NCBI GenBank assembly: GCA_964628295.1 | Contig: CAZVLS010000003.1 | Location: 187,972 to 251,971, forward strand | Length of the DNA stretch: 64,000 nt | Direction of reading: 5' to 3' | Source of the DNA: an uncultured Acidobacterium sp. | Lineage (GTDB): Bacteria; Acidobacteriota; Vicinamibacteria; Vicinamibacterales; UBA2999 | In this document: positions 3,178-51,262 of the stretch, piece by piece | Numbering within the stretch: the first letter of the stretch is position 1 | Layout of the letters: every line of letters begins with the position of its first letter | The notes under the pieces: model-generated | Databases searched by the model: none | What the model saw: only the letters and a program-made list of their open reading frames with translations | What the model was told of the DNA's origin: nothing | Program-made: the position numbers and the translations under genes

Positions 3178-4605
3178 ATGAAGAAGTATCTGGCAGTCGC
3201 GGCCGTCGTTCTCGTGGCCACCGTGGCATGGTCGGGCAGTGCCGTGCAGGCCGAGCAGGCCGCCGCGCCATCCGGCGCGCCGACGTTCACCAAGGACGTC
3301 GCGCCGATTTTCTTTGCGAACTGCACCAGCTGCCATCGGCCCGGCGATATCGCGCCGATGTCGTTGCTCACCTACAAGGACGCGCGTCCGTGGGCGAAGT
3401 CGATCGCCAGCAAGGTCGCCGACGGTAGCATGCCGCCGTGGCACGCTGATCCGAGGTACGGTTCGTTCTCGACCGCGCGCAGCTTGAGCGACGCCCAAAA
3501 ACAGACCATTGCCAGGTGGGTCGCGGCGGGCGCGCCCGAAGGCAAGGCCAGCGATTTGCCGGCGGCGCCTGTCTACACCGATGAATGGAACATCGGCACG
3601 CCTGACGCGGTGCTGTCGATGACGGAGGACTATCCGATTCCGGCCACGGGCGAAATCCCGTACCAGTATCTGGTCGTCCCCGCGAACTTTGCCGAGGACC
3701 GCTTCATCACCGATTGGGAGATTCGTCCTGGTGATCGTCAGGCGGTGCACCACTTACTGCTGTATCTCCTGGCGCCCAAGGAAGTCGCAGAGGCGCAAGC
3801 GAAGCAGCGGCAGCAGGCAATGCTTGGCCGCATGTTCGGTCCAGCGCCTCCCGCCGGCGCTCCTCGCTCAGTCGCGCCATTCGAATTTGCGTGCTGCGTC
3901 CAGATTCCCGACGGCGAAGAAGGCGGCCGTCCGCTGCCGCCAGAGATGCGCAAGGATCCGGGGCCGAACTATCGCGCGCGGCCGGTGGGCATGTCCCAGG
4001 GCATGGGCGGATTCTCACCAGGTGGATCGATTCGCCACTTCCCCGAGGGCATGGGCATGCGCATTCCGAAGGGGTATTCGCTGGTGTTCCAGATGCACTA
4101 CACCACCTACGGCAAGGCCAGCACCGATCGTTCGCGCATCGGCCTGAAGTTCGCCAAGACGGCGCCCAAGACGATCCTCAACACCATGGCGCTGATCAAC
4201 GCGTCGCTGTCGATCCCGCCGGGTGCGACCAATCACCTCGTCGAGAACACGATGACCTTCAATCGCGACACGACGATCTACAGCCTGATTCCGCACACGC
4301 ACGTGCGCGGCACGGGCTGGCACTACGAGGCGACCTACCCGGATGGCCGCAAGGAAGTGATCCTGTCGGTGCCGAAGTACGACTTCAACTGGCAGCACGA
4401 ATACGTCTTCTCGCAGCCGTGGAAGGTGCCGGCCGGGACCAAGCTGCTCGCCAAGGCGTGGTACGACAACTCGGCGAACAACAAGTCGAATCCGGACCCG
4501 ACGAAGACCGTGACCTGGGGCGACCAGACGTGGGAGGAGATGATGTATACCAGCATCACCTATGCGTTCGCTCCCGTCGCTTCGACGTCAGCGCAGCAAC
4601 GATAA
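3178..4605 (+). CDS. Secreted heme c (CxxCH) / PHM-DBM-like two-copper monooxygenase-fold fusion protein, paralog 1
   Basis: AGGAG lies 8 nt upstream of ATG 3178, followed by a signal peptide. Motifs are CTSCH (3322-3336), GSMPPWHADP, VHHLLLY...QMHY (HH..H) and HTHVRG...FNWQ...WEEMM (HxH..M). Confidence 0.8.
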   Translation: MKKYLAVAAVVLVATVAWSGSAVQAEQAAAPSGAPTFTKDVAPIFFANCTSCHRPGDIAPMSLLTYKDARPWAKSIASKVADGSMPPWHADPRYGSFSTARSLSDAQKQTIARWVAAGAPEGKASDLPAAPVYTDEWNIGTPDAVLSMTEDYPIPATGEIPYQYLVVPANFAEDRFITDWEIRPGDRQAVHHLLLYLLAPKEVAEAQAKQRQQAMLGRMFGPAPPAGAPRSVAPFEFACCVQIPDGEEGGRPLPPEMRKDPGPNYRARPVGMSQGMGGFSPGGSIRHFPEGMGMRIPKGYSLVFQMHYTTYGKASTDRSRIGLKFAKTAPKTILNTMALINASLSIPPGATNHLVENTMTFNRDTTIYSLIPHTHVRGTGWHYEATYPDGRKEVILSVPKYDFNWQHEYVFSQPWKVPAGTKLLAKAWYDNSANNKSNPDPTKTVTWGDQTWEEMMYTSITYAFAPVASTSAQQR

Positions 4606-22842: not shown

Positions 22843-22877
22843 TGGCTGCTGACTGCTGGCTACTGGCGGCCGGCTAC
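22843..22877. repeat. Solitary heptamer array (GTAGCCR-like x5, read on the - strand) filling the whole TPR-yggS intergenic spacer
   Basis: The - strand reads gtagccg gccgcca gtagcca gcagtca gcagcca and then immediately the GTG start of yggS. The TPR gene stop (22874-22876) is in the first unit. There is no inverted arm. Confidence 0.75.
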
Positions 22878-28519: not shown

Positions 28520-28575
28520 GGACTGAAGGCGCTGTAGGAACTGAAGGCGCTGTAGGAACTGAAGGCGCTGTAGGG
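28511..28575. repeat. 18-bp tandem repeat (GCGCTGTAGGRACTGAAG x3.6) starting at the last codons of the SRPBCC gene
   Basis: Copies are at 28511-28528, 28529-28546 and 28547-28564, with a partial copy at 28565-28575. Each carries an in-frame TAG (28517, 28535, 28553, 28571). Confidence 0.9.
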
Positions 28576-28595
28576 ACGAACCTTTAGGTTCGTCC
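28574..28595. terminator. Perfect 9-bp stem / 4-nt loop hairpin shared by convergent genes
   Basis: GGACGAACC-TTTA-GGTTCGTCC. The rpiB stop codon (28584-28586) is in the loop, and T-rich sequence follows on the + strand. Confidence 0.6.
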
Positions 28596-29018
28596 TTCGA
28601 TCTTCGCGACGCGGTTCGCATGGCGACCGCCTTCGAACGGCGTCTGGAGGAAGATCTTGACGATTTCGCGGGCGCGTGACTCCGGCAGGATGCGCGCGCC
28701 CAGCGCCAGCACGTTGAGATCGTTGTGTTCACGCGACAGGCGCGCGGTGTCGGTATCGACGATCGGCGCGGCGCGGACGCCGGCGACCTTGTTCGCGGCG
28801 ATCGACATGCCGACACCGGTGCCGCACACCAGGATGCCGCGGTCGAACCTGCCGGCCGCCACACCATCAGCCACCTGCCGCGCGTAGTCGGGGTAATCCA
28901 CTGACTGTGCGTTGGAGGTGCCGAAGTCTTCGTAGGTGATCCCCATCTCGTCGAGCAGCTTCTTCAACGAGTCCTTCAGCTGGTAGCCGGCGTGATCAGC
29001 GCCGATCGCGATCTTCAT
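28584..29018 (-). CDS. rpiB: Ribose-5-phosphate isomerase B
   Basis: ATG 29018 gives MKIAIGADHAGYQLK. Motifs are ILVCGTGVGMSIAANK and LALGAR, with a length of 144 aa. Confidence 0.92.
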   Translation of the reverse strand: MKIAIGADHAGYQLKDSLKKLLDEMGITYEDFGTSNAQSVDYPDYARQVADGVAAGRFDRGILVCGTGVGMSIAANKVAGVRAAPIVDTDTARLSREHNDLNVLALGARILPESRAREIVKIFLQTPFEGGRHANRVAKIEGRT

Positions 29019-29034
29019 TGCCGATAGTATAGAC

Positions 29035-30207
29035 GTGCAGGCAATGAGTACAGCGATCCTGAAACCTCGCGGCGAAGATCGAGTGCGCGGCGGGCACCCC
29101 TGGGTGTACCGCTCCGACATTGCCGATGTCGTCGATCCCGAACCGGGCGCCGTCGTCGAAGTGCGCGGCGCGCGTCAGAAAATGCTCGGTCACGCGCTGT
29201 TCAGCGACGAATCGCAGATCACGATCCGCATGATCTCGCACGACGAGACGCCGATCGACGATGCGTTCTGGCGCGCGCGGCTCGAAGCGGCGATCCGCTT
29301 CCGCGAGTCGCTGCAGCTCAATGCGACCGCGTTTCGCCTCGTGCACGGCGAAGCCGACCTGTTGCCGTCGCTGATCGTCGATCGCTACGCCGATTACCTG
29401 GTGATGCAGACGCTGTCACAGGGAATGGATCGCCTGTCGCCGACCCTGGTGCGCCTGCTCGCCGAGATCACCGGTGCCAAGGGCATCCTGGCGCGCAACG
29501 ATCCGAAGGTGCGCCGGCTCGAAGGTCTCGAGCAGAAGGTGGAAATTCTGTTTGGCGAGGTGCCGCCCACGATCTCCGTTGCAGAGGTGGGCATCACCTA
29601 CAACGTGGATCCGTGGCACGGACAGAAGACCGGGTTGTTCCTGGATCAACGCGAGAACAGGGAGGCCGCCGCGCGTTACGCGCACGGCCGCATGCTCGAT
29701 TGCTTTAGTTACAACGGCGGATTTGCGCTGGTGCTCGCCTCGAAGTGCGAATCCGTCGAGGCCCTCGACGTGTCGGCCGACGCGGTCGAGCGCATCACCG
29801 CGAACGCGAGCGCCAACGGCATCACCAACCTGACCGCCCGCGAGGCGAACGTCTTCGACGAGCTGCGCCACCTCGAGCGTGAGGGTGCCCGCTACGATAC
29901 GATCGTCCTCGATCCACCCGCCTTCGCCAAGAACAAGGCCTCGATTCCCAATGCCCTGGCGGGCTACAAGGAAATCAACCTGCGGGCGCTTCGGCTGCTC
30001 AATCCGGGCGGCTTTCTCATCACCTGCAGCTGTTCCTACAACGTGGACGAGGCGATGTTCGCTGAAGCCGTGTTCGGGGCCTCGGCCGACGCCCATATCC
30101 CGGTGACCGTCGTCGAAAAGCGGATGCAGGGGCGCGACCATCCCGTCCTGCTGGGCGTGCCAGAGACGTATTACCTGAAGAGCTTTATTCTCAGGAAGTT
30201 AGCCTAA
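29035..30207 (+). CDS. rlmI: Class I SAM-dependent rRNA m5C methyltransferase (RlmI-like, PUA + MTase)
   Basis: Motifs are GHPWVYRSDI (PUA-like N-terminus), LVHGEADLLPSLIVDRY, MLDCFSYNGGFAL and LDPPAFAK. The start is GTG 29035 or ATG 29044. Confidence 0.8.
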   Translation: MQAMSTAILKPRGEDRVRGGHPWVYRSDIADVVDPEPGAVVEVRGARQKMLGHALFSDESQITIRMISHDETPIDDAFWRARLEAAIRFRESLQLNATAFRLVHGEADLLPSLIVDRYADYLVMQTLSQGMDRLSPTLVRLLAEITGAKGILARNDPKVRRLEGLEQKVEILFGEVPPTISVAEVGITYNVDPWHGQKTGLFLDQRENREAAARYAHGRMLDCFSYNGGFALVLASKCESVEALDVSADAVERITANASANGITNLTAREANVFDELRHLEREGARYDTIVLDPPAFAKNKASIPNALAGYKEINLRALRLLNPGGFLITCSCSYNVDEAMFAEAVFGASADAHIPVTVVEKRMQGRDHPVLLGVPETYYLKSFILRKLA

Positions 30208-30405
30208 AATTAAGGGGGCCGGATGCCGATAAACAGGCCGCCGCGTCCCGCCGTAGCTAGATCACGACGGCGGATCCGCCCACTGGCTACATTCGCGTAA
30301 GTGATGGTAGCCATTAGAGGTTTGAGGAGTGACAGCCCTGTAATGGCGTTGTACACTCCCCAACCGCTGTTATTCGGTTACAAAGCAATACGTTCGGAGG
30401 AGAAG

Positions 30406-31767
30406 ATGGCTAATCGTATCGTCGGCCGGATCTTGATCGGGGCGGTGGGCGCAGTGGGCTTCCTGGCCCTGCCTGCAACACTCTCAGCTCAGACGGCCAC
30501 ACCCACGTTCACCAAGGACATCGCGCCGATCTTCCAGAACAAGTGCGAATCGTGCCATCGGCCGGACTCGATCGCGCCGATGTCGCTGCAGACGTACCAG
30601 GAAGCGCGCCCGTGGGCACGTTCCATCCGCGACCGCGTGGCGTCGCGCAACATGCCGCCCTGGCACATCGATCCGGGCGTGGGCATTCAGCACTACCAGA
30701 ACGACCGCTCGCTGACGCAGAAGGAAATCGACACCATCGTGAAGTGGGCTGCCAACGGTGCGCCGCAGGGCAACCCGGCCGACATGCCCCCGCCCGTGAA
30801 GTGGGCCGCTGGTAACGATTGGAACTACGCGTCGAAGTTCGGCGGACCGCCGGACATCATCGTCCGCTCGCCGAAGTACAAGCAGAAGGGCGGCGCCATG
30901 GATGCGTGGTACAAGCCCGTCTCCGAAGTGCCGCTGACCGAGCCCCGCTGGGTCCGCGCCATCGAGATGCGTCCCGGCACGCTGAAGGGCCGCAAGATCA
31001 CCCATCACGCGCTTGCCTACCTGATGCAGGACGAGAAGGAAGCGATCGCGTCCGGCTTGATCAGCGCCGACAACGACAGCGGCGCCGGCCTCTTCATGGA
31101 ATGGGCCGTCAACAAGGAAGGCGAGATCATGCGTCCCAACACCGGCAAGCTCCTGATGCCGGGCGCCAAGATGCGCTGGGACATTCACTACAGCGACGGC
31201 GGGGAAGACATCGAAGACACCGTCGAAATGGGAATCTATCTCTACCCGAAGGGCCAGGAGCCGAAGTTCCGCACGATGCTGTCGCTCTACAGCGGCGTCA
31301 CCGGCGGCAACCGCAACCTCGACATCGCGCCGAACTCGATCAGCGTGGGCCAGAACTTCCACGTGATGCGCAAGGCCGGCCGCGTCGAGAACTTCCAGCC
31401 CCACATGCACCTGCGCGGCAAGGCGATGATGGTCGAAGCCATCCTCCCGAACGGCCAGCAGCAGGTCCTCGGCCACGTGCCGAACTTCGAGTTCAACTGG
31501 ATGAACAACTACGTGTTCGCGGATGACTACGCGCCGCTGCTGCCGAAGGGCACGATCCTGAAGATCACCGCGTGGCACGACAACACCGCCGCGAAGAAGA
31601 GCAACCCCGATCCGAACCAGTGGATTGGCTGGGGCGACCGCACCGTGGACGAAATGGCCCACGCGTGGATCAACATCACCTACATGAGCGATGACGACTT
31701 CAACAAGGAAGTCGAAGCGCGCAAGGCGAAGTTGGCGAACACGACCGATCGCCAGCAGCAGCAGTAA
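30406..31767 (+). CDS. Secreted heme c (CxxCH) / PHM-DBM-like two-copper monooxygenase-fold fusion protein, paralog 2
   Basis: GGAGGAG lies upstream of ATG 30406, followed by a signal peptide. Motifs are CESCH (30544-30558), RNMPPWHIDP, ITHHALAY...DIHY and HMHLRG...FNWM...VDEMA. Confidence 0.8.
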   Translation: MANRIVGRILIGAVGAVGFLALPATLSAQTATPTFTKDIAPIFQNKCESCHRPDSIAPMSLQTYQEARPWARSIRDRVASRNMPPWHIDPGVGIQHYQNDRSLTQKEIDTIVKWAANGAPQGNPADMPPPVKWAAGNDWNYASKFGGPPDIIVRSPKYKQKGGAMDAWYKPVSEVPLTEPRWVRAIEMRPGTLKGRKITHHALAYLMQDEKEAIASGLISADNDSGAGLFMEWAVNKEGEIMRPNTGKLLMPGAKMRWDIHYSDGGEDIEDTVEMGIYLYPKGQEPKFRTMLSLYSGVTGGNRNLDIAPNSISVGQNFHVMRKAGRVENFQPHMHLRGKAMMVEAILPNGQQQVLGHVPNFEFNWMNNYVFADDYAPLLPKGTILKITAWHDNTAAKKSNPDPNQWIGWGDRTVDEMAHAWINITYMSDDDFNKEVEARKAKLANTTDRQQQQ

Positions 31768-31783
31768 GGAATTCGTTTTATCG

Positions 31784-31836
31784 AACGCCGGGGTTTTCGG
31801 CCAGCAACTTCCGAAAACACCCGGCGTTTTTGTTTT
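31784..31836 (+). terminator. Rho-independent terminator
   Basis: A 17/18-nt stem (AACGCCGGGGTTTTCGG / CCGAAAACACCCGGCGTT, one bulge) has a 10-nt loop and is followed by TTTGTTTT. Confidence 0.8.
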
Positions 31837-31882
31837 CCGCCGAGCCTTCGGCGGATGTGTGACGCTGTTCAGGGAGCTTCGG

Positions 31883-32785
31883 ATGATGTCATTGAAAGTG
31901 CAGTTCGGGCGCGTGGTGGCAGGGCTGGCCGCGGTTGCATGTCTGTCGGGAGCGCCTGCCGCGGCGCAGACCCTCGCCGTGGAACCGCTCAAGGATTCTG
32001 GTTCGAACGTCTATCCGGCCTACGAAGGTTGGTACCAGAACGCCGACGGCAGCTACACGTTGCTCGTCGGGTACTACAACCGCAACAAGAAGCAGACGCT
32101 CGACATTCCAATCGGTCCCGAGAACAAGATCGAGCCGGGCGGCCCCGACCAGGGTCAGCCGACGCACTTCACGGTCGGCCGCGGCTGGGGCACCATCGCG
32201 ATCAAGGTGCCGAAGGATTTCGGCGACAAGAAACTGACCTGGACGATCACGGCGAACGGCCGCACGGTGTCGGTGCCGTTCGGTGTCACCAAGGGTTACC
32301 AGATCGAACCGTTCCTGGACGCCGCGATGGGCAACAAGCCTCCGGTGATCAAGTGGACGGAAAAGGGCGCCGAATTGACCGGTCCTCCCGCGCCGCTGTC
32401 CGCCGCGCAGGTGTTCAACGGCGCGGTTGGGGAAGACGTCACGCTGACCTACTACGTGACCGACGACGGCCATGAAGAACCGCCGACGGGTGGCTCGGCT
32501 GCCGCCCCGCCCCCGGGAGGCGCGCAGGCGCCGCCCCGTCGCCCGCGCGTCAGCACCACGCTGACCAAGTATCGCGGACCCGGCGACATCACCTTCGCCG
32601 ACAACACGCCCGCAATCGAGAAGGACAAGGTGACGACGACGGCGAAGTTCTCATTGCCCGGCGAATACATCATCCGCATTGAAGCCAACGACTCATCGGG
32701 CGTGGGTGGCGGCGGCTTCCAGTGCTGCTGGACGACGGCGTACATGAAGGTCAACGTGAAGGCTGCGAACACCGGCGGCAAGTAA
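31883..32785 (+). CDS. Secreted hypothetical protein (unknown family)
   Basis: ATG 31883 gives MMSLKVQFGRVVAGLAAVACLSGAPAAAQ (signal peptide). The protein is 300 aa with a Pro/Gly/Ala-rich linker and a C-terminal ...NDSSGVGGGGFQCCWTTAYMKV. Confidence 0.6.
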   Translation: MMSLKVQFGRVVAGLAAVACLSGAPAAAQTLAVEPLKDSGSNVYPAYEGWYQNADGSYTLLVGYYNRNKKQTLDIPIGPENKIEPGGPDQGQPTHFTVGRGWGTIAIKVPKDFGDKKLTWTITANGRTVSVPFGVTKGYQIEPFLDAAMGNKPPVIKWTEKGAELTGPPAPLSAAQVFNGAVGEDVTLTYYVTDDGHEEPPTGGSAAAPPPGGAQAPPRRPRVSTTLTKYRGPGDITFADNTPAIEKDKVTTTAKFSLPGEYIIRIEANDSSGVGGGGFQCCWTTAYMKVNVKAANTGGK

Positions 32786-32814
32786 CGGACCATCAGCTTT
32801 CGGTATCACATCAA

Positions 32815-32853
32815 GCGCCGCGGCTCATCGAATGGGTCGCGGCGTCTTCATTT
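32815..32853 (+). terminator. Weak hairpin plus T-rich tail after the hypothetical gene
   Basis: GCGCCGCG ... CGCGGCGT forms an 8-bp stem (one G.U) with a 15-nt loop, followed by CTTCATTTG. Confidence 0.3.
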
Positions 32854-32898
32854 GCGCCGGTAATTCCAATTTTCTGAATCGCGCCATAAGCGAACGCA

Positions 32899-32927
32899 AT
32901 TGACTGTCCAGTTTCATCGCTGTAAGG
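32899..32927 (+). promoter_or_regulatory. Sigma70-like promoter candidate for the TonB-dependent receptor gene
   Basis: TTGACT (32899-32904), a 17-nt spacer and TAAGGT (32922-32927) lie about 80 nt upstream of ATG 33010. Confidence 0.3.
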
Positions 32928-33009
32928 TCAGTGGTGCTTTTGGCGAGGGGCGCCCGCCATCTCTTAGCGGCAGGTGTGTTTGGGGCTCGTTCGTTGATTG
33001 GGGGATTAG

Positions 33010-36000
33010 ATGGCGCCTAAGTTTGTTGTACGAACTTTCTTGTTTGTACTCGCAAGTCTCGTTCTGGTGCCCGCGGTGGCGCGTGCCCAGAGCGTATTCA
33101 CGGGAACGGTGAAAGACACGTCGGGCGCAGTGATGCCCGGTGTGACGGTCGAAGCAGCCAGTCCGGTGCTGATCGAGAAAGTGAAATCCGCAATTACCGA
33201 CGAGAACGGCTTGTACCGCATCGTCGACCTTCGTCCAGGCACCTATACCCTCACCTTCACGCTCCCGGGCTTCAACACCCAGACGCGCGCGGGCGTGGAA
33301 CTGCAGTCCAACTTCACGGCTACCATCAACGTCGAGTTGAGCGTGGGCACGCTGCAGGAATCCGTCACGGTGTCGGGCGCGTCGCCCGTCGTTGACGTGC
33401 AGCAGAACGTGAAGCAGCAGGTGCTGACGCGTGAAGTGCTCGACGCGGTGCCAACCGCCAAGACCATTCAGGGTCTCGGCCAGCTGGTGCTGGGCGTGAC
33501 GCTGAACTCGCCGGACGTCGGCGGTTCGCGCGCCATGCAGCAGACCTACTTCGCGATCCGCGGCACGGGCGGCGCACAGTCGGTGGTGCTGGTCGACGGC
33601 ATGATGACCAACGGCCTCATGGGCGACGGCGCCGTGCAGGCCTACCACAACGAAGCAATGAGCCAGGAAATGGTCTACCAGACGGCCGGCGGTTCGGCAG
33701 AAACGCAGACCGGCGGCATCACGATGAACCTGGTGCCCAAGGACGGCGGCAACCAGTTCAAGGGAGGCGCCAAGTGGGCGCGCTCGCCCGAGTCGTGGCA
33801 GGGCGACAACCTGACCGACGAGCTCAAGGCCAAAGGCGTCACCGGTGTCGACAAGATTGCGCACTTCGAGGAGTTCAACGTCGAACTGGGCGGCCCGGTC
33901 GTCAAGAACAAGCTATGGTTCTTCGGCGCGTTCCGCCAGGCGTATTACGACAAGCCGATTGCGAACACGTTTATGACCGACGGCTCGCTGCCGTATCCGC
34001 AGGCCTACGCGCGCTGTGCGGCCAACCCCAACTCGTGCGAGCAGGGTGTTTCGGACGAGAAGATGGCCAACCCGGTCGTGCGCCTTACCTGGCAGGTGTC
34101 GGAGCGCAACAAGTTCGCGGTCTACATGGACCGCGCGCTGCGTCTGCGCGGCCATGCCATGGGCGCGCTGACCGATCCGAACACCGCCTCGGTGATCTGG
34201 AACACGCCGCAGTTCACCACCGGCTCAGCGAAGTGGACGTCGACACTGTCGTCAAAGCTGCTGGCCGAAGCCGGCCTGTCGTTCAACCGCGAGTACTACG
34301 ACAACTTGTATCAGCCCGGCATCTTCGCCGAGCGTGGCACGCCGGCCTGGTACCGCAACGTCCGCAAGGACGACACCAGCACGGGCTTTCTCTGGAACGC
34401 ATCGGGCGCGCAGCTCGGAAACTACCCCGACCGTTTCGTGTGGCAGGGCTCGCTCTCGTACGTGACCGGTGCGCATAACGTCAAGGTTGGCGCGAATCAC
34501 CAGTCCGGCAAGTATCGCCGTTACAACAACGCCAACGCCGATCTCTACCAGACCTATAACAACGGCGTACCGCTCCGCGTGACGGTGCTCAACACCCCGC
34601 TCGAAGTGCAGGAAAACCTCGATCACAACATCGGCGTCTACGCCCAGGACTCGTGGAATCTGGGCAAGCTGACGCTGAACTATGGGCTGCGTTTCGACAC
34701 CAATCGCGCGCGCATCGTCGGGCAGAAGGCCATGCAGGGCCGCTTCGCCAATGTCGCCGCTTACGACGACATCAAGATGCCGGTGTGGAACGACTTCTCA
34801 CCGCGCCTGTCGGCGGTTTACAACCTCTCGGGCGACGGCAAGACCGCCATCCGCGTCGGTTACAACAAGTTCGTGACCGCGCAGACCACTGGCTTCGCGC
34901 AGCTGTACAACCCGACCGCGCTCACCACGCAGCAGCTCGCGTGGACCGACGTCAACGGCAATGACATTGCCGACGGCGAACGCGGCTGCACCGGCTACCC
35001 GGCGGTTGGTTGCGAAATCAACTTTGCCGGCCTGCCGGCCAACTTCGGCGTCCGCTCGCTCGCGCAGTTCGACCCGGACCTGAAGCGCCCGTATCAGCTG
35101 GCCTTCAACGCCGGCATCACCCACGAAGTGTTCACCGGCTTCACGGCGACCTTCGAATACTTCCGCAGCGACTTCAAGAACATCACGGTCCGCCAGAACT
35201 CGCTGCGCACGGCCGCCAGCTACGACCAGTTCACGATCGCCAGCCCGCTCGATGGCAGCAACGTAAACGTGTGGCTGCCCAAGCCTGGCGTCGCGTCGCA
35301 GGTCGCCAACATCGACAGCACCAGCGAGGACATGAAGCGCGCGTATAACGGCTTCGACATGTCCTTCAATGCGCGCCTGCGTGGCGGCATCCGCGCGTTT
35401 GGCGGCTACAGCATCGAGCGCACGATCAACAACGTGTGCGTGGCGGCGCTCAGCGACCCGAACCGCAGCCTCTACTGCAACCAGGCGGACAGCGGCATTC
35501 CCTGGCAGAAGCAGATCAAGGCCACGGTCGTCTACCCGATTCCGTTCCAGCAGATCACGCTCAGCGTCGCGTACCAGGGCCTGAACGGATATCTCGCCGG
35601 TACTGCGGCGCAGGCTTACGGCGGCTTCACCGCCGGCACCGGCTTCGACAATCCGCGCGGCCTCGGCACGTTCTATCAGATCGCGCCGACGACGCGTTAT
35701 GCGGCCGACTGCAAGGGCGCATGCACGCCGGGCGCGCTGGTGCTGCCGGCAATGGCAGCCAGCGGGTTGGCGACGATCAGCGTGCCGCTCGTGGCGCCGG
35801 AAACGGAATTCACGCCGCGCATCAACCAGTTCGACATCTCGCTGAGCAAGGCCGTTGACCTGGGCCGCGTCCGCATCATGCCGAAGCTGGACGTCTTCAA
35901 CGCGCTCAACTCAGACGACTACACCTCAGTTGCGACGATGCAGTACGGCGCAGCGACCTACGGCCGCCCGTCGGTGATCCTCCAGGGCCGCATCATTCGC

Positions 36001-36024
36001 ATCGGCGCGAATGTGACCTTCTAG
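33010..36024 (+). CDS. TonB-dependent outer-membrane receptor with N-terminal carboxypeptidase-regulatory-like domain
   Basis: 1004-aa ORF with a signal peptide. GTVKDTSGAVMPGVTVEAASP...ENGLYRIVDLRPGTYTLTFTLPGF is CarboxypepD_reg-like. A plug-like region and a long beta-barrel follow, ending in an aromatic residue (...IGANVTF). Confidence 0.85.
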   Translation: MAPKFVVRTFLFVLASLVLVPAVARAQSVFTGTVKDTSGAVMPGVTVEAASPVLIEKVKSAITDENGLYRIVDLRPGTYTLTFTLPGFNTQTRAGVELQSNFTATINVELSVGTLQESVTVSGASPVVDVQQNVKQQVLTREVLDAVPTAKTIQGLGQLVLGVTLNSPDVGGSRAMQQTYFAIRGTGGAQSVVLVDGMMTNGLMGDGAVQAYHNEAMSQEMVYQTAGGSAETQTGGITMNLVPKDGGNQFKGGAKWARSPESWQGDNLTDELKAKGVTGVDKIAHFEEFNVELGGPVVKNKLWFFGAFRQAYYDKPIANTFMTDGSLPYPQAYARCAANPNSCEQGVSDEKMANPVVRLTWQVSERNKFAVYMDRALRLRGHAMGALTDPNTASVIWNTPQFTTGSAKWTSTLSSKLLAEAGLSFNREYYDNLYQPGIFAERGTPAWYRNVRKDDTSTGFLWNASGAQLGNYPDRFVWQGSLSYVTGAHNVKVGANHQSGKYRRYNNANADLYQTYNNGVPLRVTVLNTPLEVQENLDHNIGVYAQDSWNLGKLTLNYGLRFDTNRARIVGQKAMQGRFANVAAYDDIKMPVWNDFSPRLSAVYNLSGDGKTAIRVGYNKFVTAQTTGFAQLYNPTALTTQQLAWTDVNGNDIADGERGCTGYPAVGCEINFAGLPANFGVRSLAQFDPDLKRPYQLAFNAGITHEVFTGFTATFEYFRSDFKNITVRQNSLRTAASYDQFTIASPLDGSNVNVWLPKPGVASQVANIDSTSEDMKRAYNGFDMSFNARLRGGIRAFGGYSIERTINNVCVAALSDPNRSLYCNQADSGIPWQKQIKATVVYPIPFQQITLSVAYQGLNGYLAGTAAQAYGGFTAGTGFDNPRGLGTFYQIAPTTRYAADCKGACTPGALVLPAMAASGLATISVPLVAPETEFTPRINQFDISLSKAVDLGRVRIMPKLDVFNALNSDDYTSVATMQYGAATYGRPSVILQGRIIRIGANVTF

Positions 36025-36050
36025 AGCAGGTAGGAGAGCTAAGGCAGGTA

Positions 36051-36082
36051 GGGCGGGTGGGTAACCACCCGCCCTGTTTGCG
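36051..36082 (+). terminator. GC-rich hairpin terminator after the receptor gene
   Basis: GGGCGGGTGG-GTAA-CCACCCGCCC forms a perfect 10-bp stem followed by TGTTTGCG. Confidence 0.65.
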
Positions 36083-36142
36083 TACGGCCTCTCCCGACCG
36101 GCCTTACCCGCCCCACCAGCCCTATACTGGCTCCAGTAGCCC

Positions 36143-36595
36143 ATGCTTTCCGCGCTGGTCCTGACCGTCTACATCTTCACGACGACCGATTGCCCCATTT
36201 CCAATCGGTACGCGCCGGAGATCCAGCGTCTCGCGGCCGCGTTCGGATCACAGGCCCGGTTCGTGCTCGTCTATCCCGTGCCGGGCGATTCAGACCAGGA
36301 GATTCGCGAACACAAAAAGAAGTTCGCCTACGCGCTCGACTCGGTGCGCGACACCGACCAGCGGTTGGTAAAGCTGACGGGAGTCACCGTCACGCCGGAA
36401 GTCGCGCTAATGAAGGGGGATCAACTCCTGTATCGCGGTCGCATCGATGATCGCTACATCGACTTTGGCAAGGATCGCATCAAGCCAACGACGCACGATC
36501 TTCAGGATGCGCTGACAGCTGCGATTGCCGGCAAGCCTGTTGCCGTGAAGGAAACACGAGCCGTCGGCTGTTTTCTTGCGGAGCTCGTGAAGTGA
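36143..36595 (+). CDS. Thioredoxin-fold (redoxin-like) protein with single-Cys CPIS motif and no signal peptide
   Basis: 150-aa ORF. It begins LTVYIFTTTDCPISNRYAPEIQRL, directly in the first strand/active-site region. An in-frame TAG lies 2 codons upstream of the ATG. It has a GTGA overlap with the next gene. Confidence 0.65.
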   Translation: MLSALVLTVYIFTTTDCPISNRYAPEIQRLAAAFGSQARFVLVYPVPGDSDQEIREHKKKFAYALDSVRDTDQRLVKLTGVTVTPEVALMKGDQLLYRGRIDDRYIDFGKDRIKPTTHDLQDALTAAIAGKPVAVKETRAVGCFLAELVK

Positions 36596-38391
36596 CCCTC
36601 GCGCGTCGAACGGCGTTCGTCGCCCTTCTCACCTCTCACTTCTCACTTCTCACTTCTGGTGCGTCCGCGCAAACCTTTGCTCATGACGTCGCGCCAGTCA
36701 TCTACGATGCCTGCGTGTCCTGCCACCGCAATGGCGGGCCCGGTCCATTTCCACTCACCAGCTACGACGAAGTGCGCCGCCGCGCAACGCAGATCGCTCA
36801 GGTCACTCGCAGCCGCTTCATGCCGCCCTGGAAAGTGGAGCCCGGTGTCAGTCACTTCGTCGGTCAACGCCTGCTCACTGATGCGGAGATCGAGACGATC
36901 GATCGGTGGGTCAAGAACGGAACGCCGGAGGGAGAGCCGTCTGCCTTGCCCAGGCTTCCGACGTTCGCGGATGGCTGGCTGCTCGGCAAGCCGGATCTGG
37001 TCGTGAAGCCCGAGGCACCCTTCTCGCTGCCGGCGCTCGACACCGACGCGTTTCGCATCTTCGCGATCCGCATTCCGATCAAGACGCGCACCTACGTCAC
37101 CGGCATCGAGTTCCATCCTGGCAACGCGCGCGTGGTGCACCACGCCAACATCCGGATTGATCGCACGTCAGCCACGCGCAAGCTGGACGAGGCCGATCCG
37201 CTGCCTGGGTACGACGGCCTGATGCCCCGTTCAGCGGAATACCCTGATGGCCACTTCCTCGGCTGGACGCCCGGGCAGGTCGCGCCGCTGGTGCAGCCGG
37301 AACTCGCCTGGGCACTCGAACCCGGCAGCGACCTGGTCGTGCAACTGCACCTGCAGCCCAGTGGCGCCGTCGAAGAAGTGTGGCCGGAGATCGGCCTCTA
37401 TTTCACCAATCGCACTCCGGAGCGGACGCCGACGATCCTGCGCCTTGGCTCGCAGGGCATTGACATCCCGCCGGGTGAACCGCGCTATGTGATCCGCGAC
37501 TCGTACGTGCTGCCGGTCGACGTCCAGTTGCTCGCCGTACAGCCGCACGCGCACTATCGCGCGAAGGAGATTCGCGGCACCGCGACACTGCCGGATGGTT
37601 CAACGCGACTGGTGATGCACATTCGCGACTGGGACTTCCGCTGGCAGCACGTCTACCGCGAGCAGACGCCGATCCCGTTGCCGAAGGGCACCCGCCTGGC
37701 GATGGAGTACACCTACGACAACTCGCCGATGAATGTGCGCAATCCCGAACTGCCGCCGGCGCGCGTGTTCTGGGGACAACGCTCGCGCGATGAGATGGGC
37801 GACCTTTGGTTCCAACTGCTCGCCTCGAACGAATCCGACCGCGCGCGCATGAGCGCCGAGATCAACGCCAAGATGACCGGTGAAGACATCGTCGGTTACG
37901 AGACGATGCTGAAGGTCACGCCGAACGATCCCGAACTGCATGACGATGCGGCGATGTTGTACCTGGGGATGGGCTTCGCCGCCAATGCGGTGCGTCACTT
38001 CCAGGCATCGGCCGCGCTGAAGCCGGAGTCGCCAGCCGCGCATTTCAATCTCGGCACCGCTCTCGCGCAGGCGGGCCGCTTCGACGACTCCGTGCGCGCG
38101 TTCCGGCAGGCGCTGACGCTCCGCCCCGACTACGGCCTGGCCCACGGCAATATCGGGCGGGTGCTGCTGGTGAAGGGTGACGTCAGCGATGCGCTGAAAC
38201 ACCTGGAGGAGGCTGTGCGCCTCGAGCCTGCGAATCCGCAGAGCCTGCTAGCGCTGGCTGAAGCGCTCGCACTGAGGGGCAGCTACGATCGCGCCGTCGA
38301 GATGCTCGCGCGCGCGTTGCGGCTGCCCCTGCCGGAAGCGCTCGCGAAGGAAATCTTCGCGAAACGGGCGGAGTATCTGAGGAAGAAGTAG
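36592..38391 (+). CDS. Secreted heme c (CxxCH) / PHM-DBM-like two-copper monooxygenase-fold protein with C-terminal TPR domain, paralog 3
   Basis: The start is GTG 36592. Motifs are CVSCH (36712-36726), RFMPPWKVEP, VVHHANI...QLHL and HAHYRA...FRWQ...RDEMG. C-terminal TPR repeats follow (AMLYLGMGFAANAVRHF...). The stop TAG 38389-38391 is inside a heptamer unit. Confidence 0.8.
   Translation: MTLARRTAFVALLTSHFSLLTSGASAQTFAHDVAPVIYDACVSCHRNGGPGPFPLTSYDEVRRRATQIAQVTRSRFMPPWKVEPGVSHFVGQRLLTDAEIETIDRWVKNGTPEGEPSALPRLPTFADGWLLGKPDLVVKPEAPFSLPALDTDAFRIFAIRIPIKTRTYVTGIEFHPGNARVVHHANIRIDRTSATRKLDEADPLPGYDGLMPRSAEYPDGHFLGWTPGQVAPLVQPELAWALEPGSDLVVQLHLQPSGAVEEVWPEIGLYFTNRTPERTPTILRLGSQGIDIPPGEPRYVIRDSYVLPVDVQLLAVQPHAHYRAKEIRGTATLPDGSTRLVMHIRDWDFRWQHVYREQTPIPLPKGTRLAMEYTYDNSPMNVRNPELPPARVFWGQRSRDEMGDLWFQLLASNESDRARMSAEINAKMTGEDIVGYETMLKVTPNDPELHDDAAMLYLGMGFAANAVRHFQASAALKPESPAAHFNLGTALAQAGRFDDSVRAFRQALTLRPDYGLAHGNIGRVLLVKGDVSDALKHLEEAVRLEPANPQSLLALAEALALRGSYDRAVEMLARALRLPLPEALAKEIFAKRAEYLRKK
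36625..36657. repeat. Solitary CTTCTCA-type heptamer array (x4.7) inside the signal-peptide coding region of paralog 3
   Basis: The sequence cttctca cctctca cttctca cttctca cttct is translated as LLTSHFSLLTS. Confidence 0.85.
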
Positions 38392-38468
38392 CAAGTATCA
38401 AGTAGCAAGTAGCAAGAAGAACACTCGGCAACTTCGCATTTTCTTGCTACTTGCTACTTGTTACTTCT
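38388..38468. repeat. Inverted heptamer arrays (GTAGCAA x4 / TTGCTAC x3) with a 28-nt loop
   Basis: Units are at 38388-38415 and 38444-38464. The stops of both convergent genes (38389-38391 and 38447-38449) are inside units. Confidence 0.9.
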
Positions 38469-39421
38469 GCGATCTTCCGAATCAACGGCTCCAACTGTTC
38501 CACCGTCGGCTGACCCGGCAGGTAGGTCGACACCTTGCCATCACGATCGATCAGCACGTACGTCGGCGTCGTCGAGACACCGTAGCGGGTGTAGACATCG
38601 TCGCTGACCGGCGCAGGCACGGCCTTCATCCACGGATAGAACTCGTCGCGGACCTGTTCAATGTACTTGAGTTCTTCGGCCGGACCCACCGGGCGGCGCT
38701 TTTCGGCATAGCCGAAGCGCTGCGTTGGCGCGATCACGGTGATGCCGCTGCTCTTGTACTTGTTGACGAGCCCCTCGAGGATCGGTCCCTGCTTCTTGCA
38801 GTCGCCGCACCAGTGCGCCCACAGGAACACCACGACCGGCTTGCCCTTGAGTTCGGCCAGCGACGGGGGCTTCGGCCCCAGGAACTCCGACGATTCCCAC
38901 GGCAGTGCGGGCTGGCCTTCGAGGCCAATCAGGTTGGTGTTCTTGTTCAGTCGCGTAATGATCGAGGTGCCCGCGAAGCGTTCGCCTTCACGCTGCAAAT
39001 GCATCAGCGCCTCCGACCGGCGATTCTGTCCGGCAAGCGAGAGCGCCTGGGTTTCGATCGCGGCGCCGAGCGCAATGGGCAGTCGCGCTTCGTCGTCCAG
39101 CTTACGCGTCTTCAACTGTTCTTCGACGATCTCGTACGTGCGTGCCGCGTAGGTCATCGCCTCGTCGTAGCGCTTGGCGCCGAGGTAGCCGCGTCCGAGC
39201 CACGAAAAGGCCTCGATGGCGATCGGCGTGGTGCCGTTGGCCGCCATGTCGTCCAGCACGATCTTCTCGGCCTTCTTGAGATCGTTCTCCGCGATCGCAT
39301 CGCGCACGAGTTGCACGATCGTCTTCGGTGGTGCAGCTGCCGGCGCCGGTGCGGGCGATTGCGCGACGGCCGGGGCGGTGACAACCAGAGACAAAACCAG
39401 GGCGAGCGAGATGCGTGTCAT
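38447..39421 (-). CDS. Secreted TlpA-like thioredoxin (WCGDC) with N-terminal TPR-like domain
   Basis: ATG 39421 gives MTRISLALVLSLVVTAPAVAQ (signal peptide). Motifs are LKGKPVVVFLWAHWCGDCKKQGP and VSTTPTYVLIDRDGKV. Confidence 0.8.
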   Translation of the reverse strand: MTRISLALVLSLVVTAPAVAQSPAPAPAAAPPKTIVQLVRDAIAENDLKKAEKIVLDDMAANGTTPIAIEAFSWLGRGYLGAKRYDEAMTYAARTYEIVEEQLKTRKLDDEARLPIALGAAIETQALSLAGQNRRSEALMHLQREGERFAGTSIITRLNKNTNLIGLEGQPALPWESSEFLGPKPPSLAELKGKPVVVFLWAHWCGDCKKQGPILEGLVNKYKSSGITVIAPTQRFGYAEKRRPVGPAEELKYIEQVRDEFYPWMKAVPAPVSDDVYTRYGVSTTPTYVLIDRDGKVSTYLPGQPTVEQLEPLIRKIAEVTSSK

Positions 39422-39463
39422 GACTCGTGAGCATACCGCGATCTCAGGACCTTCCGGCCCCAT

Positions 39464-39487
39464 CCCTGAACCCTGATCCTGATCCCC
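39464..39487. repeat. Short CCCTGAW heptamer array in a divergent intergenic region
   Basis: The sequence is ccctgaa ccctgat cctgat cccc, the same unit family as 9996-10030. Confidence 0.6.
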
Positions 39488-39496
39488 GTTTATAGT

Positions 39497-41665
39497 GTGC
39501 GGATGCGCAAAGCTCTTCCGCTCGTGGTTGCCACTTTTGCACTCCTCTCATCGGGCCTCCCGCACGCGCAGGTCCGGTCCATTCGCGGCTTTCCCGATGA
39601 CGCGGTCGCGGCACAGCGCCAGCGCGAAGAGCAGTACCGCAAGATTCCGGAAGCGGCGAAGTTGAAGGAGTACATGGAGGCCATGGCGGGCGACTCGCAC
39701 GTTGCCGGTCAGCCCTCGTCGAAGCGAGTCGCCGACTACGCGCTTGCGAAGTTCAAATCATTCGGCCTTGATGCGCGCATCGAGGAGTTCGAGGCGATGA
39801 TGCCGTGGCCGATCGAGACGACCGTCGAGGTCGTGGCCCCGGAGAAGTACACGCTTCGCGTCAAGGAACCGGTACTGCCGGAAGATCCTGACTCCGGCGA
39901 TCAGACGCCGCTCTACAACGCCTACTCGGGTGATGGCGACGTCACAGGCGAAGTCATCTACGTGAACTACGGCATGCCCGCCGACTACGAGCGCCTGAAG
40001 GAACTGGGCGTCGACGTCAAGGGCAAGATCGTGATCGCGCGCTACGGCGCGGGCTGGCGCGGCATCAAGCCGAAGGTTGCCTACGAACATGGCGCGATCG
40101 GCTGCTTGATCTATTCGGATCCGCGTGACGATGGCTATTACCCCGGCGATGTGTATCCGGCAGGCCCGTATCGTCCGGAGTTTGGCGCGCAGCGCGGCAG
40201 CGTGATGGACATGCCGGTGCACGCCGGCGATCCGCTGACACCAGGGTGGGGAAGCGAAGCGGGCGGCAGGAAGCTACGGATCGAGGAGGCGCAGACGATC
40301 CTCAAGATCCCGGTGCTGCCGATTTCGTACGGCGACGCGCTGCCGATCCTGCGCCAGCTCAAGGGCAAGGTCGTGCCGAACGAATGGAAGGGCGCGCTGC
40401 CGATCACGTATCACGTCGGCCCCGGTCCTGCCCGCGTGCACATGAACCTGAAGTTCGAATGGAAGAACCGACCGCTCTACAACGTGGTGGTGCGCATTCC
40501 CGGCGCCACGCGTCCCGATGAGTGGGTGATCTTTGGCAACCATCACGACGCCTGGGTGATGGGCGCGGATGATCCGATCAGCGGCGCATCGGCGCTGATG
40601 GAAACGGCGCGTGGTCTTGGCGAAATGCTCAAGACCGGCTGGCGTCCCTCGCGCACGATCGTGCTGGCCTTGTGGGACGGCGAAGAGTGGGGCTTGCTCG
40701 GTTCGACGGAGTGGGCGGAGAAGCACGGCGCCGAACTGAAGCAGAAGGCCGCGATCTACATCAACACCGACGGCACCGGTAAGGGCTGGCTCAACACCGG
40801 CGGTTCGCACAGCCTGCAGCAACTGATGGGCGAGGTCGCCAAGGAGGTCATGGATCCGCGCACCGGCAAGCCGGTGTTCGAGGAGGCCCGCCGCCGCGCG
40901 ATCCTCGGCGAGGCTGAGGCCGACCGCAAGGCGGCAGAAGCCGATCCATCCCTTCGGCTCTCACCGCTTGGATCCGGATCAGACTTCACGCCCTTCCTGC
41001 AGCACCTCACGACGTCCGTGCTGAACGTCGGGTTCGGTGGGGAGAGTCCCGGTGGTGTGTATCACTCTGCCTACGACACCGTGAAGTGGTACCAGACCTA
41101 CTCGGATGGCGACTATACCTACGGCCGCACGCTGTCGCAGCTGACAGGGACGCTGATCATGCGTCTTGCCGACGCGCCGGTCCTGCCATTTCAGTTCACC
41201 GACACTGCCGACACGCTGATGCGCTACGTCGTCGAACTGGAGAAGCTGGCCGAGTCGAAGAAAGACTCGAAGGTCGACATGAAGCCGGTGCGTGGCGCCG
41301 TTGAATCGCTCCGCGCCGCGGCGCAGGCGTTCGAAAAGGCGTATGCATCGGTGCCTCGGTCAAACACGCAGGCGCTGATGGCTCGACAGGAATTGCGCCA
41401 GCTCAACTCGTTGCTCCTGACGTCAGAGCAGAAGTTGGGCAATCGCGAAGGGCTGCCGCGCCGGGACTGGTTCAAGCACCAGATCTATGCGCCCGGCTTC
41501 TACACCGGCTATGGCGTGAAGACCATGCCGCAGATCCGCGAGGGCCTCGAGGAGAACCGCTTCACCGAGGCGCAGGGCGGTGTGCGCACGGTGTCGGCGG
41601 CGATCAACGCGCTGGCGGCGCAGGTCACTGACGCGGCAGCCACGCTTCAGAGCGCTGTCAAGTAG
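39497..41665 (+). CDS. M28-family peptidase with PA and transferrin-receptor-like dimerisation domains (glutamate carboxypeptidase II-like)
   Basis: 722-aa ORF with a signal peptide. Motifs are GKIVIARYG (PA domain) and FGNHHDAW...WDGEEWGLLGSTEW (M28 zinc ligand contexts), plus a C-terminal TFR_dimer-like helical region. The start is GTG 39497 or ATG 39503. Confidence 0.8.
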   Translation: MRMRKALPLVVATFALLSSGLPHAQVRSIRGFPDDAVAAQRQREEQYRKIPEAAKLKEYMEAMAGDSHVAGQPSSKRVADYALAKFKSFGLDARIEEFEAMMPWPIETTVEVVAPEKYTLRVKEPVLPEDPDSGDQTPLYNAYSGDGDVTGEVIYVNYGMPADYERLKELGVDVKGKIVIARYGAGWRGIKPKVAYEHGAIGCLIYSDPRDDGYYPGDVYPAGPYRPEFGAQRGSVMDMPVHAGDPLTPGWGSEAGGRKLRIEEAQTILKIPVLPISYGDALPILRQLKGKVVPNEWKGALPITYHVGPGPARVHMNLKFEWKNRPLYNVVVRIPGATRPDEWVIFGNHHDAWVMGADDPISGASALMETARGLGEMLKTGWRPSRTIVLALWDGEEWGLLGSTEWAEKHGAELKQKAAIYINTDGTGKGWLNTGGSHSLQQLMGEVAKEVMDPRTGKPVFEEARRRAILGEAEADRKAAEADPSLRLSPLGSGSDFTPFLQHLTTSVLNVGFGGESPGGVYHSAYDTVKWYQTYSDGDYTYGRTLSQLTGTLIMRLADAPVLPFQFTDTADTLMRYVVELEKLAESKKDSKVDMKPVRGAVESLRAAAQAFEKAYASVPRSNTQALMARQELRQLNSLLLTSEQKLGNREGLPRRDWFKHQIYAPGFYTGYGVKTMPQIREGLEENRFTEAQGGVRTVSAAINALAAQVTDAAATLQSAVK

Positions 41666-41678
41666 CGGAGAGCCATCG

Positions 41679-51212: not shown

Positions 51213-51262
51213 AGAACTATTATAGGCACTTCAAGACCTGTCGATCCCAGGACCTCAAGACC

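Follow-up and report, generated by a model that had tools for sequence, protein, structure and literature searches.

A stretch of 64,000 nucleotides from an uncultured Acidobacterium sp. (contig CAZVLS010000003.1, positions 187,972 to 251,971; referred to as the window) carries, between its positions 30,406 and 39,421, the genes of two exported proteins that join a c-type heme domain to a two-copper core of the PHM/DBH type. Beside these two proteins, p2 and p3, the region encodes a secreted protein (unk), a TonB-dependent receptor (TBDR), a small thioredoxin-fold protein (CPIS) and a TlpA-like protein. On balance, we favour the view that two gene pairs, p2-unk and CPIS-p3, each conserved independently of the other, have come to lie side by side in this lineage and work by the mechanism proposed below, and that the stretch is not one module. 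The two partnerships are robust and were previously undescribed, and the enzyme family is very large and unnamed. An initial annotation of the window had described the same genes as a single candidate module for envelope redox chemistry and uptake. Its observation is confirmed and its module interpretation is partly supported. The open reading frame (ORF) calls place every gene that it listed where it had put it, and export signals are visible in the translations of all products except CPIS, as it had said. The features at the centre of the analysis are the following.

30406..31767, + strand: p2, 453 aa, exported; monoheme cytochrome c domain and PHM/DBH-type two-copper core, no TPR tail
31883..32785, + strand: unk, secreted two-domain beta-sandwich protein, partner of p2-type enzymes
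36143..36595, + strand: CPIS, 150 aa, two-cysteine thioredoxin fold (C17 in the motif CPIS, C143 in a C-terminal GC), no signal peptide
36592..38391, + strand: p3; signal peptide, heme c domain (residues ~28-110), PHM/DBH-type core (~125-412), TPR tail (~414-598)
3178..4605, + strand: p1, third heme c/PHM-like paralog, alone between citrate synthase and amidohydrolase genes

The G+C content of the window is about 64%, and its nearest protein relatives are found in metagenome bins of Vicinamibacterales (Acidobacteriota). Identical DNA of the locus was recovered intact in four bioreactor metagenome runs. Synteny was compared in two sets of loci, both mapped using the window's proteins: 80 genome loci with relatives of the enzymes, ranging from 85% down to 33% identity, and 80 metagenome loci with relatives of unk, 160 loci in total (cited by number, as in L001). 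Two near-orthologous megabase contigs retain the entire gene order. As the helicase, SHMT, RpiB and methyltransferase genes on the flanks are retained too, these contigs are uninformative on functional linkage. Three loci with a gene order nearly identical to that of the Vicinamibacterales locus (L003, L004 and L012) come from bins labelled Acidimicrobiia, Cyanobacteriota and Bifidobacteriaceae; these contigs are probably mis-binned.

The heme c/PHM-like proteins belong to the PHM/DBH superfamily

The three paralogs of the window share 28-31% identity (p2 and p3 29%, p2 and p1 31%), and their alignment is invariant at CxSCH, MPPW, HH, H, HxH and EM. Each carries its heme motif after the signal peptide (CVSCH in p3, CESCH in p2 and CTSCH in p1), and the MPPW element can be seen in p2. 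A profile made from 20 family members matches rat PHM with an E-value of 1.2e-7 and human DBH with 1.5e-7, and both catalytic domains are covered. The copper ligands of PHM find their counterparts in this profile. At the CuH site, His107, His108 and His172 of PHM align with H183, H184 and H253 of p3, and at the CuM site, His242, His244 and Met314 align with H319, H321 and M402. An exhaustive profile search, counted in clusters at 50% identity, retrieved 24,290 with E<=1e-3; for 6,139 of them the match is as strong as E<=1e-30. Residue conservation was scored in the best 150 of the 24,290 family clusters, mutually no more than 50% identical. The CxxCH motif, Met77 and the six copper ligands are all present in 150/150 of these representatives. 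Met77 is the invariant methionine of MPPW and would be the distal ligand of the heme.

The structure model points to the same superfamily. The AlphaFold (AF2) model of p3 has a predicted local distance difference test score (pLDDT) of 78.9, with low confidence at residues 46-54. Searching with this model in Foldseek gave PHM (3mll) as the top match, with an E-value of 2.3e-11 and a target template modelling (TM) score of about 0.6 over about 290 residues, and DBH (4zel) with an E-value of 1.4e-9. Identity between p3 and PHM in the structural alignment is about 15%. The tail of the model resembles TPR proteins, and Pfam TPR matches fall in the same part of p3. A single-sequence search of the PDB with p3 returned nothing, and the link to PHM was seen only with the family profile and the structure model. 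Pfam and NCBIfam by themselves likewise fail to identify p2, p3, unk and CPIS, with matches that are sub-threshold or missing. Our data show that the family of p1, p2 and p3 is part of the PHM/DBH superfamily, the copper type II monooxygenases. The heme c/PHM-like call of the initial annotation is thus borne out by the profile, by Foldseek and by ligand conservation. Literature searches for bacterial heme c/PHM-like fusion enzymes returned nothing relevant.

Although the copper ligands are strictly kept, the residues that anchor the glycine carboxylate of the substrate in PHM are not. The columns of R240, N316 and Y318 hold Y/Q/M/F, D/E/I/T and W/L/F, respectively, in the 150 representatives, and the p3 residues at these positions are Q317, D404 and W406. 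Since these anchors are unconserved, it is very unlikely that a member of the family would be a peptidylglycine hydroxylase proper.

Neither p2 nor p3 has cysteines beyond the heme CxxCH. We also considered the idea that every system carries one extra redox cysteine pair, namely CC in p1, CC in unk and C17/C143 in CPIS. It was rejected because the CC of p1 is not kept among p1-type genes, the CC of unk is found in the main clade only, and both extra cysteines and a CPIS are missing from many p3-type enzymes. In the p1-type loci (L071-L082), neither unk nor a TBDR is a neighbour and CPIS is never directly adjacent; one of them, L075, has a distant CPIS relative (27% identical) about 2 kb downstream. 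Tandem double heme c/PHM-like cores occur in two representatives, P0241 (1064 aa) and P0242 (1251 aa), the latter being a twofold repeat of CPIS-heme c-PHM.

CPIS and p3 form a translationally coupled unit

A Pfam search with CPIS gave only a weak match to Thioredoxin_8. The profile of the CPIS family matches three PDB entries, 2CVB (3e-23), 2YWI (1e-22) and 3U5R (2e-20), with both cysteines aligned. Within the family, positions C17, P18, Y23, D70, P85, Y97, G99 and G142-C143 are invariant, and N21, P25, H57 and the RIDD of a YRGRIDD motif are nearly so. The family is recognised by two hallmarks: in the former CxxC, the first position is a cysteine followed by proline, and a Gly-Cys lies C-terminally. 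We take proteins of the CPIS/2CVB/2YWI type to be those that CDD calls 'PRX_like1', the same family as PrxL. An assignment of CPIS as a peroxiredoxin was rejected, as the PxxxTxxC/Arg signature is missing, the position three residues before C17 is unconserved, and Caulobacter PrxL was negative for peroxidase activity (PMC3322552).

The GTG start codon of p3 overlaps the TGA stop codon of CPIS by 4 nucleotides. This arrangement is not a peculiarity of the window. CPIS lies directly upstream of p3 in every Vicinamibacterales locus in which p3 is at least 58% identical and upstream sequence is present. The same order was found in about 14 distant loci from Planctomycetota, a Nannocystaceae bin (Myxococcota), a Fimbriimonadia bin (Armatimonadota) and other Acidobacteriota, and the overlap of stop and start codons is kept in most CPIS-p3 loci, across phyla. 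Five loci (L013, L014, L053, L063 and L068) have CPIS and p3 merged into a single ORF. Among the 150 representatives, nine carry a CPIS domain fused to the PHM-like core, at the N- or the C-terminus (P0243, P0289, P0242, P0377, P0375, P0353, P0352, P0308 and P0318), and in the N-terminal fusions a signal peptide precedes the CPIS domain. The identities of the p3 and CPIS partners co-vary with r = 0.95. CPIS and p3 are therefore a true two-gene unit. The translational coupling that the initial annotation had read from the overlap is now joined by distant synteny and by gene fusions. As the cysteines of p2 and p3 are limited to the heme motif, CPIS reduces no disulfide in the mature enzyme.

The window copy of CPIS starts 16 residues ahead of its active-site cysteine, and an in-frame stop lies two codons upstream. 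Like many close relatives of 150 aa, it has neither a signal peptide nor the N-terminal hairpin of about 25 residues, both of which are present in other members and in all N-terminal fusions, and relatives of 160-180 aa retain a short hydrophobic leader. The window form looks like the result of a 12-residue deletion inside the leader.

p2 and unk are an obligate pair

The unk protein comprises two domains. The C-terminal one is PKD/Ig-like, with the motif GGGGFQCCW in the main clade only. The N-terminal domain is conserved, without detectable relatives and without conserved histidine, methionine or cysteine residues. Searches with unk in Pfam, NCBIfam and the PDB, the latter with sequence and profile, gave no match apart from weak PKD similarity. 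The AF2 model of unk has an overall pLDDT of 58 and is confident for the C-terminal Ig-like domain only. The fold search gives no more than generic Ig/PKD similarity, because the N-terminal domain is modelled at low confidence.

Among the metagenome loci with enough flanking sequence, 61 of 62 have a p2-type gene directly adjacent to unk and on the same strand; p2 comes before unk in 41 of them, and unk before p2 in 20. In the genome loci, every p2-type gene is followed by an unk-like gene (21/21). Partner identities co-vary here as well (r = 0.94). A second, paralogous p2-unk pair with 41% and 30% identity is found in four loci of close relatives (L001:18942-21159, L003:15607-17726, L004:16463-18687 and L005:15745-17981). 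It lies a few kb downstream of the M28 peptidase gene described below and is absent from the window; its enzyme has two extra cysteines and its partner has no CC motif. p2 and unk are an obligate pair, and this neighbourhood, which the initial annotation had not singled out, is supported here as a partnership.

One unk-like protein (L021:6453-7610, - strand) has a C-terminal helical extension that ends in CQGCH, a heme motif like that of cytochrome c'. This extension is a hint of a possible association between unk-type partners and electron transfer.

A TonB-dependent receptor is probably linked to the enzymes within Vicinamibacterales

The gene between the two pairs encodes the receptor.

33010..36024, + strand: TBDR, with CarboxypepD_reg domain, Plug domain and 22-strand-type barrel OMP_b-brl_4

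Pfam scores are 25.3 bits for Plug (cut-off 23.9) and 130.5 bits for OMP_b-brl_4. Compared with the PDB, the sequence matched no receptor, copper-specific ones included. Most orthologous loci have the TBDR gene placed between unk and CPIS; in L013 it lies elsewhere, and L019 has no TBDR, p2 or unk.

Paralogous receptors with 31-50% full-length identity flank PHM-like genes in L021, L022, L023, L025, L031, L045 and L121. The receptor stands immediately upstream and on the same strand of a p3-type gene in L021, L025, L031 and L045 (twice there), and of a p2-type gene in L022; it is downstream in L121 and divergent in L023. Gaps between receptor and PHM-like gene are 85-110 nucleotides where CPIS does not lie between them (L022, L025, L031 and the first cassette of L045), and gaps between receptor and CPIS are 90-120 nucleotides (L021 and the second cassette of L045). 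As background, five receptors were counted in 251 kb at a distance of more than 3 kb from any unit, and these show 22-28% identity in partial alignments. Seven non-orthologous receptor-adjacent cases were seen. By our arithmetic, about 6 of about 12 non-orthologous p3-type blocks are receptor-adjacent, compared with about 0.3 expected from the background. As the sample is small and partly related, we grade the link between receptor and PHM-like genes as probable and specific to the order Vicinamibacterales. The place that the initial annotation gave to the receptor within the module thus holds in part: paralogous receptor cassettes recur in Vicinamibacterales, whereas the receptor is dispensable in L003, L027 and L019 and absent outside the order.

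Hairpins and transcription units

Three hairpins were located on the + strand between the genes of the region.

31783..31838, + strand: terminator-like GC hairpin with U-run between p2 and unk (dG -32 kcal/mol, z -3.5)
32815..32845, + strand: terminator-like hairpin after unk, found in a consensus scan (dG -30.9 kcal/mol, z -3.2)
36044..36082, + strand: 17-bp hairpin after the receptor gene, with weak U tail (dG -48.6 kcal/mol, z -6.0)

The hairpins after p2 and after the receptor gene, both noted as terminators in the initial annotation, are real and stable; the hairpin after unk had not been listed there. A hairpin with U-run is found at the equivalent position between p2 and unk in L001, L002, L005, L013 and L015. 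Since the stems differ in sequence and the position is kept, selection on the structure can be argued for. This pattern suggests that an attenuator or terminator is under selection within a gene pair that is itself conserved. The locus L003, which has no receptor gene, has a terminator-like hairpin between unk and CPIS. Judged from the hairpins, p2, unk, the receptor and CPIS-p3 are probably separate transcription units. CPIS-p3 alone looks like an operon and is clearly co-translated. The paralogous p2-unk pairs have gaps of 0-10 nucleotides and are therefore likely co-transcribed. No Rfam family, riboswitches included, was found at positions 28000-42000.

Neighbouring genes and other features of the window

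Two further genes follow p3.

38447..39421, - strand: TlpA-like, convergent; TlpA/ResA-like thiol-disulfide oxidoreductase with WCGDC (HWCGDC) and signal peptide
39497..41665, + strand: M28 peptidase, Pfam PA/M28/TFR_dimer, with glutamate carboxypeptidase II-like architecture

The TlpA-like protein matches Pfam Redoxin with 44.5 bits (cut-off 26.6; 1.8e-11), ResA (4nmu) with 9e-14 and TlpA (1jfu) with 4e-7. Its N-terminal half had been called TPR-like, and Pfam gave no match there. The gene is found only where p3 is at least 72% identical (L001-L011 and L085) and is absent from L012-L019; in L015 and L017-L019, the M28 gene comes next after p3. The M28 gene, which the initial annotation had pointed out next door, accompanies the orthologous locus throughout Vicinamibacterales together with the housekeeping flanks, and it is absent from all paralogous cassettes. 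A role of the M28 peptidase as partner in the C-terminal processing of peptides was considered and rejected, as nothing beyond order-level synteny speaks for it. We regard the TlpA-like gene and the M28 gene as neighbours by descent that stand outside the system.

When 179 neighbouring proteins from 60 distant loci were scanned with Pfam, no recurrent partner emerged beyond local synteny, the latter comprising MacB/FtsX, Band_7 and AdoMet_dc in Bryobacterales. The Bryobacterales-type loci L036, L042, L044, L050, L067 and L072 have p3-type genes without CPIS in a different conserved neighbourhood. An MacB/FtsX-type permease gene lies upstream in L035, L040, L042 and L044 (820-890 aa) and in L036 (713 aa), and a run of genes of about 338, 115 and 212 aa lies downstream of the Bryobacterales-type p3 genes. 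The Pfam scan of the downstream genes gave Band_7 in 6 of 89 neighbours and AdoMet_dc in 5 of 89, matches that were not assigned to single genes. This neighbourhood is likely local synteny.

The window is also rich in peptidase genes, which lie at 15183-16574, 39497-41665, 42766-44115, 44927-46588 and 50789-52393 and are of the trypsin-like S1, M28, M23, M1 and M20 types. Additional S58 and S9 peptidases are found in orthologous loci, and the peptidases of the region have no demonstrable tie to the PHM-like genes. An ankyrin-repeat protein (Ank_2, Ank_4) is encoded beside the M28 peptidase at 41854-42735 (+ strand); its start is uncertain, as the long ORF opens in low-complexity sequence rich in arginine and proline. 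Upstream of the region, at 27208-28519 (+ strand), an ArsR-type HTH regulator gene and two genes of AHSA1/SRPBCC-family proteins follow each other with overlapping stop and start codons and make up a separate small operon. A 311-aa protein encoded at 22874-23809 (- strand) combines CarboxypepD_reg with TPR repeats, accessory domains that are found apart in the receptor and in p3. Finally, a 613-aa ORF at 13278-15119 (+ strand) has a good coding signal and no Pfam match.

Proposed mechanism and alternative explanations

Conservation of the gene neighbourhood had been named in the initial annotation as a way to check its single module. Over the 160 loci, this comparison gives a split result. CPIS-p3 and p2-unk are each co-conserved, whereas the module as a whole is not, since the TBDR belongs to one order and is dispensable there, the TlpA-like gene is confined to loci with a p3 of at least 72% identity, and the M28 gene goes with local synteny.

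In the mechanism that we propose, each unit would consist of a periplasmic, cytochrome c-fused monooxygenase with a non-coupled two-copper core and a partner specific to its subfamily. The His2Met copper would activate dioxygen, leading to hydroxylation of a periplasmic substrate at a C-H bond. Two electrons would enter via the fused c-type heme from the periplasmic cytochrome pool, replacing the ascorbate of the animal enzymes. The dithiol of CPIS may be an accessory of the p3 subfamily, which would either donate two electrons or work on the substrate or the product, and CPIS would probably be recycled by a DsbD/ScsB-TlpA route. For the p2 subfamily, unk may be a binding or docking subunit. 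The repeated location of the enzymes just behind paralogous TonB-dependent receptors argues that the substrate in Vicinamibacterales would most likely be a compound imported across the outer membrane via the adjacent receptor. This substrate would probably not be a glycine-extended peptide. These arrangements are the basis from which we infer which way electrons pass through the heme, what the dithiol does and that the substrate is imported.

Several observations weigh against this reading. On the side of the enzymes, the Pfam matches to Cu2_monooxygen/Cu2_monoox_C stay below the gathering cut-off of 23 (17.3 bits for p3, 22.4 bits for p1 and none for p2), and those to Cytochrome_CBB3 reach 19.9-20.6 bits at a cut-off of 27. 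In about 25 p3-type loci, mostly from Bryobacterales, and in all p1-type loci, CPIS is not found directly beside the enzyme gene and extra cysteines are lacking, so the dithiol cannot belong to the core catalytic cycle. As written, the window copy of CPIS would be cytoplasmic and thus kept apart from p3. The receptor is missing from L003 (p3 85% identical) and L027 (79%), where unk is directly followed by CPIS, and no such receptor was found beside a PHM-like gene outside Vicinamibacterales. Receptors of this type abound in acidobacterial genomes, and our enrichment estimate rests on few, partly related loci. The hairpins part p2, unk and the TBDR from each other. Regarding expression, none of the RNA-seq runs that were checked for the locus carries it.

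The region could instead be a module for copper supply and maturation. The receptor would import copper or a copper chelate, and CPIS would be either a Cu(I) chaperone like Sco or, like ResA, a reductase that serves the CxxCH of the apocytochrome, with the TlpA-like protein keeping CPIS reduced. Together they would load the PHM-like enzymes with copper and heme and take no part in the conversion of the enzymes' substrate. Sco proteins have a Cys2His copper site, and CPIS, with its thioredoxin fold, two invariant cysteines and nearly invariant His57, resembles it. Such a role would also agree with the fact that mature p2 and p3, whose cysteines lie only in the heme motif, offer CPIS no disulfide to reduce. 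Moreover, the TlpA-like gene adjoins in this clade, and TlpA-type proteins reduce periplasmic partners (PMC3322552). However, this adjacency is restricted to the closest clade, and the 1:1 fusions in both orders, together with the tandem repeat of CPIS-heme c-PHM, fit a working partner better than a one-time assembly factor. Additionally, p1, p2 and many p3-type enzymes have identical heme and copper sites but no CPIS, the receptor has no PDB sequence match to any receptor including the copper-specific ones, and no genes of copper homeostasis or cytochrome maturation were found elsewhere in the window. We regard the maturation explanation as unlikely.

A simpler alternative is that only the two gene pairs are functional. 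The adjacency of the receptor would then be accidental, and the substrates would be endogenous or freely diffusing, such as envelope components or small aromatics and amines. The loss of the receptor in L003 and L027, where p2-unk-CPIS-p3 is retained, is in line with this view, as is the finding that 6 of the 30 longer metagenome p2-unk loci carry a receptor. The neighbours in the 60 distant loci include no recurrent transporter, and the hairpins isolate the receptor gene. On the other hand, the order receptor-(CPIS)-PHM-like recurs with paralogous genes on the same strand, at about 6 of about 12 blocks against about 0.3 expected, and this alternative seems rather improbable to us.

The copper core might also work in the opposite direction, as an oxidase, dehydrogenase or detoxifier that passes electrons outward via heme c, or it might reduce reactive oxygen or nitrogen species with CPIS as a scavenger. 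The c-type heme is known in fusions with copper enzymes where it joins the copper to the respiratory chain. The residues that hold the peptide carboxylate in PHM are not kept, and the chemistry may therefore have diverged. Against this stands the strict His3/His2Met set of the O2-activating enzymes PHM and DBH in 150/150 representatives. A detoxifying role is further opposed by the missing peroxiredoxin PxxxTxxC/Arg signature of CPIS and by the absence of peroxidase activity in Caulobacter PrxL (PMC3322552). Taken together, outward electron flow or detoxification appears highly improbable.

Significance

If the reading of two monooxygenase units is followed to its broadest form, the family may represent a large and unstudied class of bacterial periplasmic copper monooxygenases, in which a built-in cytochrome c replaces ascorbate, electrons come from the respiratory chain, one subfamily has a PrxL-type dithiol protein as partner and a second depends on unk, and in Vicinamibacterales the substrates are imported by TonB-dependent receptors; we put this forward tentatively. 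If true, the widespread 'PRX_like1' family would receive its first known role, and oxygenase chemistry would gain a connection to the thiol pathway of DsbD. For Vicinamibacterales, this reading would mean a new route for the periplasmic processing of organic matter in bacteria of soil and water.

PHM and DBH belong to the textbook enzymes of animals, and debate continues on the way in which their two coppers are reduced and cooperate. More than 24,000 clusters with the exact copper ligands and a c-type heme of their own would offer soluble, self-contained models of electron transfer. They would also point to unrecognised periplasmic oxidative chemistry in bacteria, among them Acidobacteriota and Planctomycetota, that abound in soil, freshwater and wastewater. 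The partnerships with CPIS and unk are concrete and testable handles on function. A role for CPIS would serve a thioredoxin-fold family that has three solved structures and no known function. Annotation would benefit as well, since these genes, which now go by names such as 'TPR protein', 'TadD' or 'hypothetical', can be assigned to defined two-gene units.

Comparison with known systems

The receptor resembles SusC-like and acidobacterial CarboxypepD_reg receptors in the order of extension, plug and barrel. It differs in that a SusD-like partner gene, a riboswitch and a closely related solved structure are all missing. The gene at 38447-39421 shares the fold, the WCxxC motif and the signal peptide with TlpA, ResA and CcmG, and its product differs from them by an extra helical N-terminal half of about 150 residues. 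An analogy at the level of function is provided by fungi, where the cytochrome domain of cellobiose dehydrogenase feeds lytic polysaccharide monooxygenases and is thus a heme donor to an extracytoplasmic copper oxygenase. This analogy is functional only, as folds and organisms are unrelated and heme b and a histidine brace stand in place of heme c and His3/His2Met.

CPIS is like 2CVB (Thermus TTHA0593), 2YWI and 3U5R in its fold, its Cys-Pro and its C-terminal Gly-Cys. The PRX_like1 protein PrxL of Caulobacter is exported, and its two distant cysteines form a disulfide that is kept reduced by the DsbD-type protein ScsB; no function is known for PrxL, which shows no peroxidase activity (PMC3322552). 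Unlike proteins of the PrxL/2CVB type, CPIS is coupled or fused to a heme-copper enzyme, and its window copy is without an export signal.

The enzymes p1, p2 and p3 resemble PHM and DBH. They have in common a catalytic core of two beta-sandwiches, and the ligands of CuH (His-His...His) and CuM (His-x-His...Met) correspond one to one. The enzymes of the window lack the lyase (PAL) domain and the conserved R240, N316 and Y318 of PHM. They are bacterial and predicted to be periplasmic, and where the animal enzymes have ascorbate or DOMON, they carry an N-terminal domain with a covalently bound c-type heme.

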